Both the position numbers and the translations under genes were made by a program. From contig NZ_RSDW01000001.1 in NCBI RefSeq assembly GCF_003945235.1, positions 4,110,001 through 4,142,000 of the forward strand: a stretch of 32,000 nucleotides of DNA. The letters are read 5' to 3'. The notes below the pieces were generated by a model. That model was not told where the DNA came from. It was given only the letters and a program-made list of their open reading frames with translations, and searched no databases. The number at the start of each line of letters is the position of its first letter. Positions within the stretch are counted from its first letter, which is position 1. Source of the stretch: Edaphobacter aggregans. GTDB taxonomy: Bacteria; Acidobacteriota; Terriglobia; Terriglobales; Acidobacteriaceae. Below, one piece after another: positions 3,540 through 32,000 of the stretch.

Positions 3540-4921
3540 ATGAATTCAGCAGTTTTGTACGCTCGTGTCTCAAGCAAAGACCAAGAGCAAGAGGGGTACT
3601 CCATACCTGCGCAGATCAAAATGCTGCACGAGTATGCCCGCCGTAAAGAGCTGTCTATCGTTCAGGAATTTGTCGATGTTGAGACCGCAAAGGCACGAGG
3701 CCGAAAGCGGTTTGGTGAGATGCATGACTTCCTGTCACGAAATCCGGAGTGTCGCATCGTCCTGGTCGAAAAGACTGACCGCCTCTACCGGAATTTTTAC
3801 GACTACTTAAAGTTGGATGAACTTGGCATCGAGATCCATCTTGCAAAAGATGGACAAATCATCTCTCCCGAATCGAAGTCGCAGGCGAAGCTCACGCACG
3901 AGAAGGCTTCCCAAGGGATTTACCCGAGCCGCCCCCCATTGGGATACGTCAATGAGGTCGCGGAAGGGTCAATCGTTGTGCACGAACAGAATTCGCTCGT
4001 CGTCAAGGATCTTTTCTCGCTGTACGCGACAGGGGATCATTCCATGGCGTCGGTTCGAAAGGCGCTTTTTGAGCGCCACGGTAAGAAGTACGCGAAAGGG
4101 TACCTGCACAAACTCCTTAAGCATCGCTTTTACGTCGGATTTTTTGAGTGGGAGAAAATCGTCTATAGGGGTACGCATGAGACGTTCATAGGCCCCGCGC
4201 TGTTTGAGCAAGTGCAGGCCGTACTGGAGGGTCATAACCGTCCCAAGTATCGCAAGCATCAATTCGCGTTTGCGGGGCTTCTGACGTGTGCGCACGACGG
4301 CCTTACAGTGACGGCAGAAGTGAAGAAAGCGAAATACGTTTACTACCACTGCACCGGCTACAAAGGGAAATGCGGCCTTCCGTACATGAAGGAAGAAATC
4401 CTTGGGAGGCAATTTGGAGAGGTACTAAAGAAAATTTATGTCCCTGACCCGGTCCTGAAAGATGTAGTGGCATCGCTTCGTGAAAACGAGGACAAGTCCG
4501 TCGCCGAGCGACGCGAAACAGCGTCGTTAGTCGAGCGACGCTTGGCCGCTCTGCGCAGGAGAATGGAGCAGGCGTACCTCGACAAACTCGACGGAAATAT
4601 CACGCCAGACTTTTGGACCCGGATGCAACAGGACTGGCAACAGGAAGAGATGCGGCTTGAGCAATCCCTCCGGACGCTGGGTCAGCCCCTAGACCCGCGG
4701 CGGCTGCTAGATGCTGAGCGAACTCTAGACTCGCGAATAAGGCGCGTTCTCTATACGAAGTGCAGAATTGTGATGAGAAGGGCAAACTGCTGAAAATAGT
4801 GCTTTCGAACTGCTCTACGGATGGCGTAAGTCTATGGCCTGTCTATAGAAAGCCGTTCGATATGATCTTCAACAGAGCAAAAACTGAGGAATGGTGCGCC
4901 CGAGAAGATTCGAACTTCTGA
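3540..4921 (+). pseudogene. Large serine recombinase (resolvase-type N-terminal catalytic domain), apparently decayed by a 3' frameshift and a probable internal deletion
   Basis: The sequence MNSAVLYARVSSKDQEQEGYSIPAQ... carries the catalytic Ser motif and VEKTDRLYRN. The track frame stops at 4793. A second frame, open from 4718 to TGA at 4919-4921, continues as LANKARSLYEVQNCDEKGKLLKIVLSNCSTDGVSLWPVYRKPFDMIFNRAKTEEWCAREDSNF. That resembles the conserved C-terminus of this family as I recall it. The segment KLTHEKASQGIYPSRPPLGY appears to lack about 20 aa of the alpha-E helix region compared with remembered homologues. Confidence 0.7.
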
Positions 4922-4968
4922 CCTACAGCTTCGGAGGCTGCCGCTCTATCCAGCTGAGCTACGGGCGC
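4892..4968 (-). tRNA. tRNA-Arg (anticodon CCG), CCA encoded
   Basis: The reverse complement is GCGCCCGTAGCTCAGCTGGATAGAGCGGCAGCCTCCGAAGCTGTAGGTCAGAAGTTCGAATCTTCTCGGGCGCACCA. It has a 7-bp acceptor stem, a GCTC/GAGC D stem and anticodon loop CUCCGAA. The T arm is AGAAG-TTCGAAT-CTTCT. Confidence 0.92.
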
Positions 4969-19360: not shown

Positions 19361-20677
19361 CTACTGGGGCGTAACCGGATTCGCCGGTTTTATATCTGTG
19401 GCCGACGGGAAATAGCCTTTTTTCGCGATGACATTGAGGCCCGGCTTCAGCACCTTGACCTCGATCGGACGATACTTCCCATCGATGAACGGCTCGTGCG
19501 TGTAATACCCGATCGTGTACTGGTTCCGAGCCTCTTCCGTAATCCGTGCAAAGCTCTGCTCGATGCCCTTCTGTCGGAACTCAGCGTCAAAGTACCCGCC
19601 CGTCTCGCTCGCATAAGCCGGAAGCAGGTTGTCCTTCATCATCAGCGGCAGGTGGATCTTGTCGAGATAGCCCACCACCGGCAGGGAAGAGTCGCCCACC
19701 AGAGTCCCATACACGGCAACCTTGTTCGTCTGCAGATACTTCACCACATCCTTATACTTCGCCTGGCTGCCATACTCTTTACCGTCGCTGATCACATAGA
19801 CCACGCGCCGCCGTCCTTTACCTGCCTTCGACGTGGCGATTGCAGCGGCCAGAATAGCGTCGTTCAGCGTGTGAACCTCTCTGGGCGGATTGATCTGCAT
19901 GCTCGCGCGGTTCCGGTTCGCAGACGTATTCGGATCAAATTGCTGGTCGTTACGCACAATTGTCTGCGCCAGCGGTCCACCCAGCGGTTGCAGTGGTTCG
20001 CGCCCCGTCGTCCTCGATGAATCCAGCACGAACTTCAACCGATCACTCTGGCCCGCCGTGAAAGGTGTACGCATCTGCGGCCCATTGTTGTAGGTAAAGA
20101 CCGCAACCTCGTCATAGGGTGAAAACGCATCCGACAGCGCGGTCATGGCCGCGTTCACCTTGGCCATGTTGTCGACGGTCAGGCTCTGATCGATCACCAC
20201 CGCCACCGACAGCGGCCATGGATCCACGGTAAAGAGCCTCATCTGTTGACGCAGTCCATTTTCATAGACCCGAACATCGCGCCAGGTCAGTCCCGGCACC
20301 AGCTTGCCACTCTTGTCCTTCACCGTAAACGGCACTTCGACCAGGTTGACCTGGATCGACGGCAGCGTAAACGCCTTCGCGCCCTGACCCGCCGCCGGAA
20401 CCTCCGGCGCGGCACCCTCATCGGGATTCGAGGCAGTTGGCTTGGTTTGCGGCAGACTGGTCGTCGGTGCGGTTGGCTGTTGCGGATCCGGCGCCTCATC
20501 CCCATTTGAAGTCGCCGTCGTACCCATACCCGGCCTGGTTCCTGTAACGGGTAAGCCCTGCGGCCTCGGAGCATCAGGGATCGACTGCTGCGCTACATCC
20601 TGCGCCGCCGTCTGCTGAGCAGGCTGCCCAAGCACCATGCACGCCAAAGCACCTGCCAATAAACCATTCCTTACCAC
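19361..20677 (-). CDS. VWA domain-containing protein (VWFA-related acidobacterial domain type) with a Pro/Thr-rich N-terminal linker
   Basis: A signal-like N-terminus and a low-complexity PQ/PT region are present. The core has LSVAVVIDQSLT (MIDAS-like DxSxS variant), VVYVISDGKEY and the C-terminal motif YTIGYY...YRPIEVKV...KGYF. Confidence 0.85.
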   Translation of the reverse strand: MVRNGLLAGALACMVLGQPAQQTAAQDVAQQSIPDAPRPQGLPVTGTRPGMGTTATSNGDEAPDPQQPTAPTTSLPQTKPTASNPDEGAAPEVPAAGQGAKAFTLPSIQVNLVEVPFTVKDKSGKLVPGLTWRDVRVYENGLRQQMRLFTVDPWPLSVAVVIDQSLTVDNMAKVNAAMTALSDAFSPYDEVAVFTYNNGPQMRTPFTAGQSDRLKFVLDSSRTTGREPLQPLGGPLAQTIVRNDQQFDPNTSANRNRASMQINPPREVHTLNDAILAAAIATSKAGKGRRRVVYVISDGKEYGSQAKYKDVVKYLQTNKVAVYGTLVGDSSLPVVGYLDKIHLPLMMKDNLLPAYASETGGYFDAEFRQKGIEQSFARITEEARNQYTIGYYTHEPFIDGKYRPIEVKVLKPGLNVIAKKGYFPSATDIKPANPVTPQ

Positions 20678-28573: not shown

Positions 28574-29455
28574 CTAAATAACAACCTTACTCAGCGGATA
28601 CTCCACAATCCCCGTCGCGCCCACAGCCTTCAGCTTCGGAATCACATCCCGCACCAGGCTCTCATCCAGAATCGTATTCAGCGCAACCCACTCCGGGTCG
28701 CTCAAATGCGAGATCGTGGGAGAGTTCAACGCCGGCAGCACACCCACTACAGCATCCAGATCAGCAACGCGAGCATTCAGCATCAGCCCAACGCGCCCCT
28801 GCGCCGCAATCGCAGCATTCAGCATCAGCGAAATATTCTCAATCTTCTTCCGCTTCCACTCATCCTTGAAAGCGCCCTTATTCGCAATCAGTTGCGTCTC
28901 GCTCTCCATCAGAGTCTCAATAATCCGCAGCCGATTCGCCCGCAACGAAGACCCCGTCTCCGTTACCTCAACAATCGCGTCAGCCAGCGTAGGAGGTTTC
29001 ACCTCCGTAGCACCCCAGCTAAATTCAACAGTCACCGGAATATTCTTCGAAGCAAAATACCTCTTCGTAAATTCAACCAACTCGGTAGCGATAATCTTCC
29101 CCGCCAAATCCTCGGGCTTCTGAAACGGCGAATCCTCCGGCACAGCGAGCACCCACTTCACCTTCTGCCGGCTCTGCTTCGAGTACGTAAGACTCGTCAC
29201 ATATTCAACATCGTGCTGATTCTCCATCACCCAGTCATTCCCAGTCAGCCCAGCATCCAGCGCCCCATGCGCCACATACCGAGCCATCTCCTGCGCCCGC
29301 ACCAGCATGCACTCAATCTCTTCATCGTCGATAGAAGGGAAGTAGCTCCGCCCATTCGCGAAGATCCTCCACCCAGCCCGCTCAAACAGCGCCACCGTAG
29401 CATCCTGCAGGCTGCCCTTCGGAATCCCCAGCTTCAACTTTTTCGTCTCGCTCAT
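28574..29455 (-). CDS. hisG: ATP phosphoribosyltransferase (long form with C-terminal regulatory domain)
   Basis: The 293-aa product begins [23 protein letters not shown]. Its length is consistent with HisG-long, so no HisZ is needed. Confidence 0.95.
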
Positions 29456-29805
29456 TTCGTCTCCGTCTCAATCTTCTTCGTAAAGCAGCTCACCGTACCT
29501 TCGTGGCACACCAGCCCATCGCCCTCAACCTCAACCTTGAACAGCAATGCATCGTTGTCACAATCGGTCGAAGCCTCAATCACCCGCAGCCGATTCCCAC
29601 TCGTCTCGCCCTTCATCCAAAGCTTGCTCCGCGTCCTGCTCCAGAACGTCACAAACCCGGTCTCCAGCGTCTTCGCGTAGCTGGTTTCGTTTAGAAAACC
29701 CAGCATCAGCATCTCGCCCGTCTTCGCATCCTGCACGATCCCCGGGACCAGCCCATCCATCTTCGCAAAATCGATCTTCACAGCATCTGCCATCACAATC
29801 TCCAT
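29452..29805 (-). CDS. hisI: Phosphoribosyl-AMP cyclohydrolase (monofunctional HisI, no HisE domain)
   Basis: Motifs [18 protein letters not shown] and DCDNDALL are present. The start was chosen at ATG 29805 (AGGAC upstream); ATG 29793 is the alternative. The track TTG at 29820 lies inside the terminator U-tract. Confidence 0.9.
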
Positions 29806-29820
29806 TTCGTTGTCCTGCAA

Positions 29821-29865
29821 AACACAAAGAAAAAGGCCCGCTCGCGGTTAGCGCGTTAGCGGGCC
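29821..29865 (-). terminator. Intrinsic terminator of the his attenuator
   Basis: The minus strand reads GGCCCGCT-AA-CGCG-CTAAC-CGCG-AGCGGGCC (8 bp plus 4 bp). It is followed by TTTTTCTTTGTGTT. It sits between the leader ORF stop and the hisI start. Confidence 0.85.
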
Positions 29866-29926
29866 TTTCAGAAGTCCTTAGTAAGCGTTCGTTACTTCGC
29901 CACACCGGACACAGCCGCCAACACGC
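29851..29926 (-). promoter_or_regulatory. Candidate antiterminator pairing of the his attenuator
   Basis: GCGTGTTGGCGG (29926-29915, leader codons 17-21) is complementary to CCGCTAACGCGC (29862-29851). The pairing has 10 Watson-Crick and 2 G-U pairs, plus one further A-U. It occupies most of the terminator 5' arm, so the two helices are mutually exclusive. Confidence 0.6.
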
Positions 29927-29975
29927 TCTCCGCATGATGATGGTGATGCCCGTGATGGTGCTTCACGAAATTCAT
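29892..29975 (-). CDS. hisL: his operon leader peptide (27 codons, 8 His within 9 consecutive codons)
   Basis: The minus strand reads ATG AAT TTC GTG AAG CAC CAT CAC GGG CAT CAC CAT CAT CAT GCG GAG AGC GTG TTG GCG GCT GTG TCC GGT GTG GCG AAG TAA. An in-frame ATG GAG extension starts at 29981. The ORF is below the ORF-track length cutoff. Confidence 0.8.
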   Translation of the reverse strand: MNFVKHHHGHHHHHAESVLAAVSGVAK

Positions 29976-29984
29976 CTCCATTTC

Positions 29985-30013
29985 AGCCTAACTTTCACGC
30001 CCGCATAAGTCAA
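29985..30013 (-). promoter_or_regulatory. Candidate sigma70-type promoter of the his leader (TTGACT - 17 nt - TAGGCT)
   Basis: TTGACT is at 30013-30008 and TAGGCT at 29990-29985 on the minus strand. The -10 match is weak. The implied transcript start would fall at or next to the leader ATGs, giving a possibly near-leaderless mRNA. Confidence 0.3.
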
Positions 30014-30127
30014 ATCGCGACGACGCATCCACCAATGAAATTCCCCGGAAAGGTCATTGACGACCTCGTTCCCGCTGCGTACCCTTCGGCAAGAAAGCAG
30101 TCAGCAGCTCTCAAGGAGACCCACCCC

Positions 30128-30442
30128 ATGCTCAAGCTTCGCCACAAAATTCTCGCAGCCGCTCTCCTCTTCACCTCCCCCATCTTCACCGTAGCCCAGA
30201 CCGCTCCCCCGACTCCCAAGACCCCCGCGCCAGCAGCCGCCACCGGCCTCCTCGACATCAACACCGCCAACCCCGACCAGCTCAAAGCCCTCCCGGGCAT
30301 CGGCGACGCCTACGCCAAGCGCATCATCGACAATCGCCCCTTCACCAGCAAAGACCAGCTCGCCAGCAAGGGCATCATCCCCCAGAAGACCTACGACGGC
30401 ATCAAGAACCTCATCATCGCCAAGCACGCGCCGTCCAAGTAA
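30128..30442 (+). CDS. ComEA-like helix-hairpin-helix DNA-binding protein (secreted)
   Basis: ATG at 30128 follows AAGGAG. A signal peptide is present. The motif LDINTANPDQLKALPGIGDAYAKRIIDNRPF is an HhH motif. The track start at 30035 was trimmed. Confidence 0.8.
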   Translation: MLKLRHKILAAALLFTSPIFTVAQTAPPTPKTPAPAAATGLLDINTANPDQLKALPGIGDAYAKRIIDNRPFTSKDQLASKGIIPQKTYDGIKNLIIAKHAPSK

Positions 30443-30467
30443 CCAAAACAATCTCTGCCACACCCAC

Positions 30468-30503
30468 AAGGCTGACTGCTACCATGCAGCCAGCCTTTGT
30501 CTT
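30468..30503 (+). terminator. Candidate intrinsic terminator after the ComEA-like gene
   Basis: The hairpin is AAGGCTGACTGC-TACCAT-GCAGCCAGCCTT (7 + 4 bp with one A-C mismatch). It is followed by TGTCTT. Confidence 0.5.
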
Positions 30504-30514
30504 GCCATCTTCCT

Positions 30515-32000
30515 ATGCTGCAACGATCGGCTCGCCTCCAATATCTCCTTCTCGCAATCGTGGCGTTCTTCGCGCTCACGCACCTCTACCTGGGTTTCAA
30601 GCAGAACTTCTATACCCAGGCCAACGGCCGCTACCTCGCTCGCGTACCCTTCTTCGGTAACACTCGCGGAGCCACCCTCACCTCCCTTTTGCCCGAGGCC
30701 ACAGCCGCCGGACTCAAGGCAGACGACACCATCCTCACCGTGAATGGCCGCCCCTTCACCGGCAACATAGTCCTGTCGCAGGAAGTCCGTCACAGCCAGC
30801 CAAACCAGCTCCTCGACGTCACCTTCGTCCGCCCCGGCAACTCCGCACCGTCGCACGCGAGCATCGTCCTCGCGCCCATCCACACGCAGGCCACTACCCT
30901 CTGGGGCTGGATCGTCCTCACCGTCATCTCCCTCCTGGCCGCCTTCTGCCTCTTCACGGGTCTCTACGTCGTTCTGGCGAAACCCCGCAACCCGCACGCC
31001 TGGCTCATCCTCGGCATACTAGGCTATTTCGACGCTCTCTTTGTCTCGCCCTCCTCGCTACACGGCCCGCTGGTGCCCATCGCCATTATCTGGTCCGTGA
31101 TATCGCAGACCGCCATGCCCCTCTGCCTCATGGGCTTCGGCATCTACTTCCCCGATCGGTCGACGATCGACATCCGTTTCCCCTGGATCAAGTGGCTCTT
31201 TGTCCTTCTCATCGTTTCGCTCATGCCGTTCGATATGTTGCAGTTGTTCGGTCACAACTACAACTTCGCCCTGGTGCGCTGGTTAGACCCCTATCTGAAC
31301 CGCATCTTCGCCATCGATACCATCGCCAGCTTCCTCGCCATCTGCTACTTCTTCATCTGCCTCCTCCCGCGAATCCGCACCGCCACCGGCGACGCTCGCC
31401 GCCGCCTTCGCATCCTCTACCTCGGAACCTCCATCGGCCTCGCACCATTCTTCGTCCTCCTCTTCATCGCTATCGTCCGCAAGACCGACGTCGGCGCGGC
31501 CATGCCCGAGTGGATCGTTCTCACCATCGTGGGAATCCTCTTCCTCTTCCCCCTCACCCTCGCCTACGTCGTCGTCGTCCAGCGCGCCATGGACGTCCGC
31601 ATTCTCATCCGACAGGGCACCAAATACTTCTTCGCCCGCCAATCCATCGTCATCGTCTCCATCCTGCTCACCACTTGGATGGCCTACAACATCAGCCGCT
31701 TCTTCTCGAGCTCCGGCCACCACCGCGTCGTCGACGTCGTCCGCATCTTCGGTATCATCGCCCTCTTCTTCGCCTTCCGCTTCGTCTTCTCCAAACGCCT
31801 TCAGCAAAGAATCGACCAGCGCTTCTTCCGCGAGGCCTACTCCACCGAGCAGGTCCTCTCCGAAATCTCCGACGAAGCCCGAACCTTCACCGAGGTCGCC
31901 CCACTCCTCAACACCATCACCCAGCGCATCGGCGACACCCTCCACGTCGACCGTATCGCCGTCTTCCTTCGCTCCGGCGACACCTACCACCTCCAGCTAG
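30515..32000 (+). CDS. Membrane sensor protein, N-terminal part (PDZ domain, multiple TM helices, start of a GAF-like domain); 3' end off-window
   Basis: The frame is open from ATG 30515 to the window end. It is absent from the track because it has no stop. The translation reads MLQRSARLQYLLLAIVAFFALTHLY...AAGLKADDTILTVNGRPF...(about 8 hydrophobic helices)...EARTFTEVAPLLNTITQRIGDTLHVDRIAVFLRSGDTYHLQL. The strong C-ending codon bias matches other plus-strand genes. The output domain is unknown; SpoIIE/PP2C is only a guess. Confidence 0.75.
   Translation, partial: MLQRSARLQYLLLAIVAFFALTHLYLGFKQNFYTQANGRYLARVPFFGNTRGATLTSLLPEATAAGLKADDTILTVNGRPFTGNIVLSQEVRHSQPNQLLDVTFVRPGNSAPSHASIVLAPIHTQATTLWGWIVLTVISLLAAFCLFTGLYVVLAKPRNPHAWLILGILGYFDALFVSPSSLHGPLVPIAIIWSVISQTAMPLCLMGFGIYFPDRSTIDIRFPWIKWLFVLLIVSLMPFDMLQLFGHNYNFALVRWLDPYLNRIFAIDTIASFLAICYFFICLLPRIRTATGDARRRLRILYLGTSIGLAPFFVLLFIAIVRKTDVGAAMPEWIVLTIVGILFLFPLTLAYVVVVQRAMDVRILIRQGTKYFFARQSIVIVSILLTTWMAYNISRFFSSSGHHRVVDVVRIFGIIALFFAFRFVFSKRLQQRIDQRFFREAYSTEQVLSEISDEARTFTEVAPLLNTITQRIGDTLHVDRIAVFLRSGDTYHLQL

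Follow-up and report, generated by a model that had tools for sequence, protein, structure and literature searches.

A putative histidine-sensing leader-peptide attenuator in front of the hisI-first operon of Edaphobacter aggregans and other Acidobacteriota

We analysed a stretch of 32,000 nucleotides (nt) from Edaphobacter aggregans (GCF_003945235.1, contig NZ_RSDW01000001.1, positions 4,110,001 to 4,142,000), in the following called the window, and concentrated on the leader region that precedes hisI, the first gene of the histidine operon hisIGDCBHFA. The leader lies on the minus strand, and all positions given below without further specification are window coordinates. Judging from the sequence, it is highly probable that this leader acts as a ribosome-mediated leader-peptide transcription attenuator, which senses histidyl-tRNA (transfer RNA) and controls the operon; by analogy with the classical systems, the operon would very probably be switched on when histidine is low. 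The evidence consists of the parts themselves, of alternative helices that exclude each other, of their conservation and covariation among related leaders, and of the thermodynamic feasibility of the alternative states. A preliminary description of the locus had proposed the logic of the hisL and trpL attenuators; this proposal is supported by a short open reading frame (mini-ORF), a terminator, an antiterminator, and a protector helix, which are conserved and covary among 76 leaders, and by ten distant loci.

Parts of the leader and their alternative pairings

The leader ORF MNFVKHHHGHHHHHAESVLAAVSGVAK (29975-29892) begins with an ATG at 29975 and consists of 27 codons followed by UAA (29894-29892). 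Eight of the nine consecutive codons at 29960-29934 specify histidine, namely those at 29960, 29957, 29954, 29948, 29945, 29942, 29939, and 29936, which are codons 6-8 and 10-14 of the leader; the remaining one, at 29951, is a single glycine codon. The preliminary description had placed this 27-codon minus-strand ORF and its His run at exactly these positions. When all six frames of the window are considered, a density of more than five His codons in nine occurs at this single site. A mechanical list of ORFs extends the frame to an in-frame ATG at 29981, which gives 29 amino acids. Only 3 nt separate the -10 box predicted below from this codon, and 29975 is the position to which the homologues align; because of the predicted promoter position, ATG 29981 lies probably upstream of the transcription start and outside the transcript.

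The leader ORF is followed by an intrinsic terminator hairpin, GAAAGGCCCGCUAACGCGC-UAAC-CGCGAGCGGGCCUUUU, which occupies 29869-29831 including an A/U extension and has a folding energy of -25.8 kcal/mol. Its GC core begins at 29865, 26 nt past the leader stop codon, a distance that agrees with the one given previously for the GC-rich hairpin and its U-tract. Directly after the hairpin follows the U-rich tract UUUUUCUUUGUGUUUU (29819-29834); it runs to 29819 and thus ends about 13 nt before the hisI ATG (29805), which corrects the earlier figure of about 16 nt.

Upstream of the leader ORF, a -35 box TTGACT (30013-30008) and a -10 box TAGGCT (29990-29985), the latter of the type TAnnnT, are predicted at a distance of 17 nt from each other, and 9 nt separate the -10 box from the leader ATG. 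Of 77 homologous leaders, which are introduced below, 76 have TTGAC(A/T) at a fixed distance, with a spacer of 17 or 18 nt between it and TAnnnT. The gap between the -10 box and the leader ATG is 8-9 nt in most leaders, and the distant loci possess a like layout. The usual spacing between a -10 box and +1 is 6-7 nt, and the gap therefore suggests a 5' untranslated region of 0-3 nt, which would offer no room for a Shine-Dalgarno sequence. None is visible in front of the leader ORF, as the window's sole GGAG abuts the ATG with zero spacing. The sequence that links the -10 box to the ATG varies; CAG, GAG, or GCA are the commonest triplets directly before the ATG. On the basis of this arrangement, the leader ORF is probably leaderless or near-leaderless. 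A simple scanner for terminators and promoters flagged neither in the window; this negative is uninformative, as the terminator was missed because of a 2-nt internal loop and the promoter because its -10 box matches just three of the six consensus bases.

An inspection of the possible pairings revealed three competing helices. The His-codon run (region 1) provides the 5' strand of the 1:2 anti-antiterminator helix, in which 29960-29932 pairs with 29926-29898; this imperfect helix of about 21 base pairs (bp) has a 5-nt loop and an energy of -29.6 kcal/mol. A protector of this type had been recognised before, but as a short local hairpin: its existence stands, whereas its extent is far larger. 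The first 12 nt of the 3' strand (GCGUGUUGGCGG, 29926-29915) represent region 2 and are complementary to CCGCUAACGCGC (29862-29851) in the terminator 5' arm. In the 2:3 antiterminator, region 2 at 29927-29913 pairs with region 3 at 29865-29850, and folding as well as covariation identify the latter as antiterminator 3' strand and terminator 5' arm at the same time. The 1:2, 2:3, and 3:4 helices are mutually exclusive, in agreement with the earlier claim that the pairing of 29926-29915 with 29862-29851 excludes the terminator. The loop of the antiterminator harbours a nested hairpin (29910-29874), which encloses the leader stop codon and is closed at its base by UCC (29909-29907) and the GGA of an AGGA motif (29878-29875). 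The unconstrained minimum free energy (MFE) structure of the leader consists of the 1:2 helix and the terminator. A comparison of terminator and antiterminator energies, as proposed in the preliminary description, gave -25.8 kcal/mol for the former and -33.1 kcal/mol for the 2:3 helix with its nested hairpin, which is also the lower value in comparison with the 1:2 helix.

Conservation and covariation of the element

A scan for HisI in 185,579 species genomes led to 80 Acidobacteriaceae loci from Edaphobacter, Granulicella, Terriglobus, Terracidiphilus, and Tunturiibacter. In the closest one (L001), the leader peptide is identical and HisI is 97% identical. Cultured carriers among these loci include Edaphobacter modestus DSM 18101 (L004), Granulicella aggregans (L031), Terriglobus roseus DSM 18391 (L032), and Terracidiphilus gabretensis S55 (L057). 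One locus (L018) offers only 12 nt of upstream sequence and was left out as uninformative; a His-run mini-ORF precedes hisI in all 79 others. Clusters with at least five His codons in nine were found 77 times in the approximately 26 kilobases (kb) just upstream of hisI versus 31 times in the other approximately 930 kb, and nearly all of these 31 are at the bare threshold. The leaders have a median length of 27 codons (range 24-29) with a median of eight His codons. A hairpin with a U-tract occurs at the same relative position in 77 of the 78 leaders and begins 25-30 nt after the leader stop codon.

For the assessment of the helices, 76 distinct leaders were aligned from the ATG to the terminator (alignment A1) and folded by means of RNAalifold. 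The unconstrained consensus comprised the 1:2 helix and the terminator; when His codons and the 3' arm of the terminator were masked, a 12-bp antiterminator between columns 53-64 and 146-158 was predicted. For the antiterminator, 93.4% of the alignment cells are paired versus 28-54% in slid controls, and five pairs are doubly changed. The corresponding values for the 1:2 helix and the terminator are 88.8% versus 35-46%, with 12 doubly changed pairs. In both tests, the real alignment exceeded all 500 shuffles in its percentage of paired cells as well as in its covariation score. Two of the antiterminator pairs, for instance, are distributed as UA 42, CG 18, UG 8 and as CG 35, UA 23, UG 16. The core of the 1:2 helix is 96% paired and shows a CG/GC swap at its closing pair; the terminator helix is 88% paired with five doubly changed pairs. 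Similarly, the mean energy of the 2:3 duplex is -19.4 kcal/mol, compared with -14.5 kcal/mol for shuffled sequence. The leaders form two main clades, which differ in their peptide tails (...AxSVLAAVSGVAK versus ...GTSMPADCHGLK): the change from UUGGCGG to CCGGCGG between the clades is matched by a change from CCGCUAA to CCGCCGG in the terminator arm. Paired variants also exist within the clades, namely UCGGCGG:CCGCUGA, CUGGCGG:CCGCCAG, and CAGCGGG:CCCGCUG. Thus, the conservation in related Acidobacteriota on which the preliminary description had made its proposal depend is found for the mini-ORF as well as for the helices.

Codon statistics distinguish the His run from its surroundings. Within the run, the third codon positions have an entropy of about 1.0 bit versus about 0.35 bit at positions 1-2; this synonymous variation indicates selection on the amino-acid identity of the codons. 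The hypothesis that the run consists of rare codons was rejected, as CAU makes up 56% of the His codons in the leaders versus 61% in the his genes (p = 0.74).

The nested hairpin is part of the MFE structure in 77 of 77 leaders, yet its mean z-score versus shuffled sequence is merely -0.66. The idea of a strongly selected element was dropped for this reason; as the hairpin is not clearly stabler than shuffled sequence, folding allows it to be regarded as a selected element only tentatively. The AGGA at its base belongs to an AGGA(U/A)U motif (29878-29875; columns 118-121 of A1), which is located 10-15 nt ahead of the terminator. Its GA is at least 90% conserved and its flanks are variable; the motif also occurs in the Vicinamibacterales locus L090 described below. 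The antiterminator state of leaders of the Edaphobacter/Granulicella type has the motif paired with UCC (29909-29907).

Several Acidobacteriaceae loci deviate from the common pattern. L011 (2832-2982) scores 142.6 bits with the covariance model described below but lacks an ATG in frame ahead of the His run, possibly owing to a frameshift or an assembly error. In L051 (2773-2933) and L071 (2783-2942), the His runs are weakened to four in nine, the scores are low (33.6 and 57.2 bits), and L051 has no recognisable U-tract terminator. These three are possibly degenerate copies. L029 and L030 are two contigs of the metagenome-assembled genome (MAG) binchicken_co3_11 with identical leader and hisI regions; probably the assembly is redundant or the bin contains duplicate strains.

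In order to reach beyond Acidobacteriaceae, HisI representatives with 49-69% identity to the window's HisI were collected by a search among 50%-identity representatives and two profile searches, and ten further loci (L081-L090) were fetched with divergent HisI proteins. The protein names point to one Bryobacteraceae, one Vicinamibacterales (L090), and two members named "Acidobacteria bacterium"; L082-L085 and L087-L089 are placed only by their similarity to hits named Acidobacteria, Bryobacteraceae, or Vicinamibacterales. In all ten, hisI comes first, and the order hisI-hisG-hisD is found in nine, as the contig of L090 ends inside hisI. All ten possess a promoter-proximal His-rich mini-ORF (for example MFAARHHHPHHHGHAVTG, MLRLAGHHHRAAVRRAVF, MRSGVHHAHHHHHPRQRAGLWTCA, and MSLNRHHHVHHHHHRSSGREGFARMG), a terminator, and a segment after the His codons that is complementary to the terminator 5' arm. 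The helix sequences, such as GGGCGGGGCUGCGG:CCGCGCCCCGCC, are unrelated to those of the window, and the same is true for the peptide tails. At seven of the ten loci, the 2:3 duplex surpasses 96 or more of 100 shuffled versions. Two forms of the leader can be distinguished: the long one (L001-L080) has 24-29 codons, a region 2 that lies well ahead of the stop codon, and the nested hairpin across the stop; the short, Bryobacteraceae-type one (L081-L084) has 17-19 codons and a region 2 that overlaps the stop codon, as in trpL. Note that L082 contains only three His codons (HHH). In L086 (2001-2420), the called hisI start (139 amino acids) overlaps the leader terminator; the true start lies probably about 50-60 nt downstream, and the deposited gene call seems too long.

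A covariance model (R1), which was built from the 76 Acidobacteriaceae leaders alone, detected all ten distant loci in full length and starting exactly at their ATGs, with E-values between 1.5e-11 and 0.02. At E <= 1e-4, R1 has one sense-strand match in each of 86 of 88 sources (544 kb), L087 and L089 missing the cut-off; the other matches are a few weak antisense ones to palindromic hairpins, and the window contains a single match. We consider it an even chance that a single ancient RNA family extends across Acidobacteriota, including at least Terriglobia and Vicinamibacteria, with a leaderless or near-leaderless leader ORF and a coupling of transcription and translation which is set by the promoter and not by a Shine-Dalgarno sequence. 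Three points were absent from the preliminary description: the conserved promoter directly before the leader ATG, the true length of the 1:2 helix, and the occurrence beyond one lineage of the phylum.

Proposed mechanism and alternative explanations

The course of events proposed here, from the transcription start via stalling and its timing to the histidine response, is modelled on the classical trp/his attenuators. Transcription would start from the sigma-70-type promoter TTGACT-N17-TAGGCT, where +1 would probably precede the leader AUG by 0-3 nt, and a ribosome would load without Shine-Dalgarno sequence once the 5' end emerges. If histidine is plentiful, the ribosome should pass the eight His codons and cover region 2 while its A site is on codons 15-25. 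When the ribosome is gone, region 2 would re-pair with the neighbouring His-codon segment to give the 1:2 helix with its 5-nt loop; region 3 would be free for region 4, the terminator would form, and RNA polymerase would halt at the U-tract ahead of hisI. If histidine is scarce, a ribosome stalled on the His codons would mask region 1 and leave region 2 single-stranded. Region 2 could then pair with region 3 once this is made, and the resulting antiterminator of 13-15 bp would close the nested hairpin, sequester the terminator 5' arm, and allow the polymerase to proceed into hisI. The outcome would be set kinetically by whichever partner region 3 meets first.

The geometry of the leader was evaluated with a ribosome model that places a 27-nt footprint on a transcript stopping before the terminator 3' arm. 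In this model, the 2:3 helix has a probability of about 0.95 as long as the A site is at codons 1-13, of 0.78 at codon 14, and of at most 0.16 at codons 16-25; region 2 remains accessible when a ribosome sits on the regulatory codons and is blocked by one further on. With a longer transcript and an over-long footprint, the flip to the antiterminator occurred at four positions of the His run (A site on His-Gly-His-His, 29954-29945).

Several observations weigh against the attenuator interpretation or restrict it. Firstly, for the full leader at equilibrium, the terminator is the MFE structure for every ribosome position, which means that the switch must be kinetic, as in trp. For this reason, equilibrium folding of the masked full leader was rejected as a way to test the switch; the relevant model is the one with the shortened transcript. 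Secondly, without a ribosome and without the 3' arm, the 2:3 helix is thermodynamically favoured over the 1:2 helix. Termination in plenty therefore needs either that the 1:2 helix forms first, by fast re-formation behind the ribosome, and is kinetically trapped, or that the terminating ribosome, held by the loop, sterically excludes the antiterminator; this would be consistent with the strong conservation of the 1:2 helix. Thirdly, in the long form region 2 ends 21 nt before the leader stop codon, unlike in trpL, and a ribosome parked on the stop codon consequently does not mask it. Fourthly, given the lack of a Shine-Dalgarno sequence, efficient translation of the leader is predicted on the assumption of leaderless initiation. 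Furthermore, the 2:3 duplexes of L082, L086, and L090 are no better than shuffled ones (18-22 of 100 are as good), and much of the covariation originates from one split into two clades, which implies fewer independent events than the cell counts suggest.

The alternative that survives best, although it is improbable, is that leader ORF and hairpins work chiefly through translation, through the stability of the messenger RNA, or via Rho instead of intrinsic termination, for example by access to the hisI ribosome-binding site or by Rho loading. Some amino-acid attenuators sequester the ribosome-binding site (PMC9413887), the spacer contains the conserved AGGA, and a terminator that always wins at equilibrium might require an extra factor for read-through. 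However, the canonical GC-rich hairpin with its U-tract is kept in 77 of the 78 leaders as mentioned above, and its distance to hisI ranges from 21 to 146 nt, a variation which makes the hairpin unable in general to occlude the hisI Shine-Dalgarno sequence. In the window, this sequence, read as AGGA at 29816-29813, 7 nt before the ATG, is located outside the terminator hairpin.

A functional, His-rich micropeptide (such as a metal binder) as the product of the mini-ORF, whose place before hisI and next to a terminator would then be incidental or secondary, is very unlikely. At the level of the peptide, only the His run is conserved, and the N-termini are free to vary, with 45 distinct 5-mers among the 76 leaders. 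The conserved ORF length of 24-29 codons and the His run itself would fit a micropeptide, and a precedent for a leader peptide acting in trans is peTrpL of Sinorhizobium (PMC7298713). In contrast, the four or five codons of region 2 have zero entropy at their third positions across 39 and 25 sequences of the two clades (peptides SVLAA and SMPAD), which indicates selection on nucleotides and thus a constraint at the RNA level. The differing tails SVLAAVSGVAK and SMPADCHGLK keep the pairing while their third codon positions are invariant, the opposite of what selection on a protein would produce. These fixed third positions together with the variable N-termini argue against a functional micropeptide, and the tails of the distant leaders are unrelated, whereas the element is always found upstream of hisI.

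Equally little probability is assigned to a switch whose state depends on an RNA-binding protein or on uncharged tRNA, in the manner of a T-box, of TRAP, or of HisR, in which case the His codons would not be sensed. Besides the hairpins, the sole feature common to all lineages is an in-frame His run at a fixed distance from the promoter, which is difficult to reconcile with such a device, although T-box and HisR control of his genes is common in other phyla (PMC9413887). Neither a T-box (RF00230) nor any other regulatory Rfam family was matched in the window or the ten distant loci; at gathering thresholds, these sequences contain nothing but a tRNA. No palindromic operator was noticed, though no systematic search for one was made. 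Finally, the idea that a His-rich ORF and a terminator came together by chance, conceivable in GC-rich genomes with their many spurious ORFs, is refuted by conservation, that is, by the unique site with more than five His codons in nine in the window, by the presence of the element in 79 of 79 and ten of ten loci, and by the covarying helices.

Genomic context and comparison with known systems

The first structural gene, hisI (29805-29452), encodes a phosphoribosyl-AMP cyclohydrolase only (Pfam PRA-CH, 7.8e-30; NCBIfam PRK00051). The rest of the operon (29455-22034, minus strand) consists of hisG in its long form, hisD, hisC, hisB, an ORF of 94 amino acids (25468-25184) without family match, hisH, an ORF of 98 amino acids (24558-24262) with a Biotin_lipoyl domain (1.2e-9), an ORF of 177 amino acids (24224-23691) without family match that overlaps the start of hisF by 7 nt, hisF, and hisA. 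The statement of the preliminary description that the operon begins with hisI and not with hisG holds for the window and for the ten distant loci alike. A search for hisE (PRA-PH) among the small ORFs of the operon found none, and the cluster is thus without hisE although HisI is monofunctional. Upstream, on the plus strand and divergent from the promoter region of the leader, a ComEA-like helix-hairpin-helix protein (HHH_3) with a signal-peptide-like N-terminus is encoded at 30125-30442; due to this orientation, the terminator cannot belong to the upstream gene. Downstream of the operon lies a gene for a VWA-domain protein of the acidobacterial type (TIGR03436 acidobact_VWFA, 1.9e-47; 19361-20677, minus strand). 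The window's sole Rfam match at gathering score is a tRNA gene (4895-4968, minus strand; RF00005, 70.3 bits).

Few groups of soil bacteria are as abundant as Acidobacteriota, and the element offers a well-supported, testable cis-regulator of one of their core biosynthetic operons. The covariance model is ready for annotating the element in genomes and MAGs and could be submitted to Rfam. If the reading as one family with leaderless initiation is correct, the element would extend Rfam, would be the phylum's first described amino-acid attenuator, and would hint at a use of leaderless initiation for regulation in Acidobacteriota; the start codon abutting the promoter would make it a simple natural system for studying leaderless initiation coupled to attenuation. 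In addition, it adds evidence that leader-peptide attenuation is phylogenetically broad and not a proteobacterial speciality.

The mechanism itself is a textbook one and not new; new are the sequence family, the phylum, hisI as the first gene, and a leader ORF that is probably near-leaderless. In Acidobacteriota, hardly any predicted attenuator has an assigned function (PMC2965389). A full-text literature search found no his attenuator for this phylum, as the preliminary description had presumed, but subscription-only papers were outside its reach and a prior mention is possible. The Rfam family His_leader (RF00514) has no match in 29000-31000 even at E <= 10 and, at gathering score, is equally absent from the window and from L081-L090, a result that the preliminary description had named as the sign of a distinct family. 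A sub-threshold match to Trp_leader (RF00513) at 29828-29926 (16.9 bits versus a gathering score of 41, E = 3.9) can be explained by the shared architecture.

With respect to initiation, the closest parallels are known from Deinococcus deserti, for which fourteen leaderless leader peptides are predicted, one with its start at -1 (PMC4007540), and from mycobacteria, in which poly-Cys leaderless short ORFs serve as attenuators (bioRxiv 10.1101/834739). The main text of the D. deserti paper has no occurrence of the word "histidine" (PMC4007540). In these cases, as presumably here, the leader ORF is located at or 1-3 nt from the transcription start and lacks a Shine-Dalgarno sequence; their starts were mapped experimentally, whereas the one proposed here is deduced from the conserved -10 box 8-9 nt before the AUG. 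With respect to the amino acid sensed, His leader-peptide attenuators have been predicted in Firmicutes, namely in front of hisZ/hisS of the Bacillus cereus group, in Peptostreptococcaceae, and in Erysipelotrichales (PMC2965389, PMC9413887), and a conference report on a search for His leaders in Actinobacteria is cited in PMC4833913. Like the element described here, the Firmicutes leaders are lineage-specific, were found by comparative genomics, and fail to match RF00514. They contain 3-5 His codons and occur in a handful of species, whereas the present element comprises 89 loci from at least two classes which are covered by one model; the phylum and the sequences differ as well.

The enterobacterial hisL shares with the element a short ORF with a His run, an intrinsic terminator that precedes the first his gene, hairpins that exclude each other, and the sensing of His-tRNA via stalling (PMC9413887), the last of which is predicted here. 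In contrast to hisL, the operon starts with hisI and not with hisG, the eight His codons are broken by a conserved glycine codon, a Shine-Dalgarno sequence is lacking, the promoter abuts the AUG, and neither sequence nor structure is detectably similar. The enterobacterial his leader ORF has 16 codons compared with 27 in the window, and the Salmonella and E. coli his leaders form the helices A:B, C:D, and E:F, compared with the simpler set of 1:2, 2:3, and 3:4 plus the nested hairpin. E. coli trpL follows the same four-segment logic of 1:2, 2:3, and 3:4 helices with the regulatory codons in segment 1, although it senses another amino acid, the element is not a member of its family, and the stop codon of the window's leader lies 21 nt past region 2. 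The short variants of the Bryobacteraceae type do have region 2 at the stop codon, just as trpL does.

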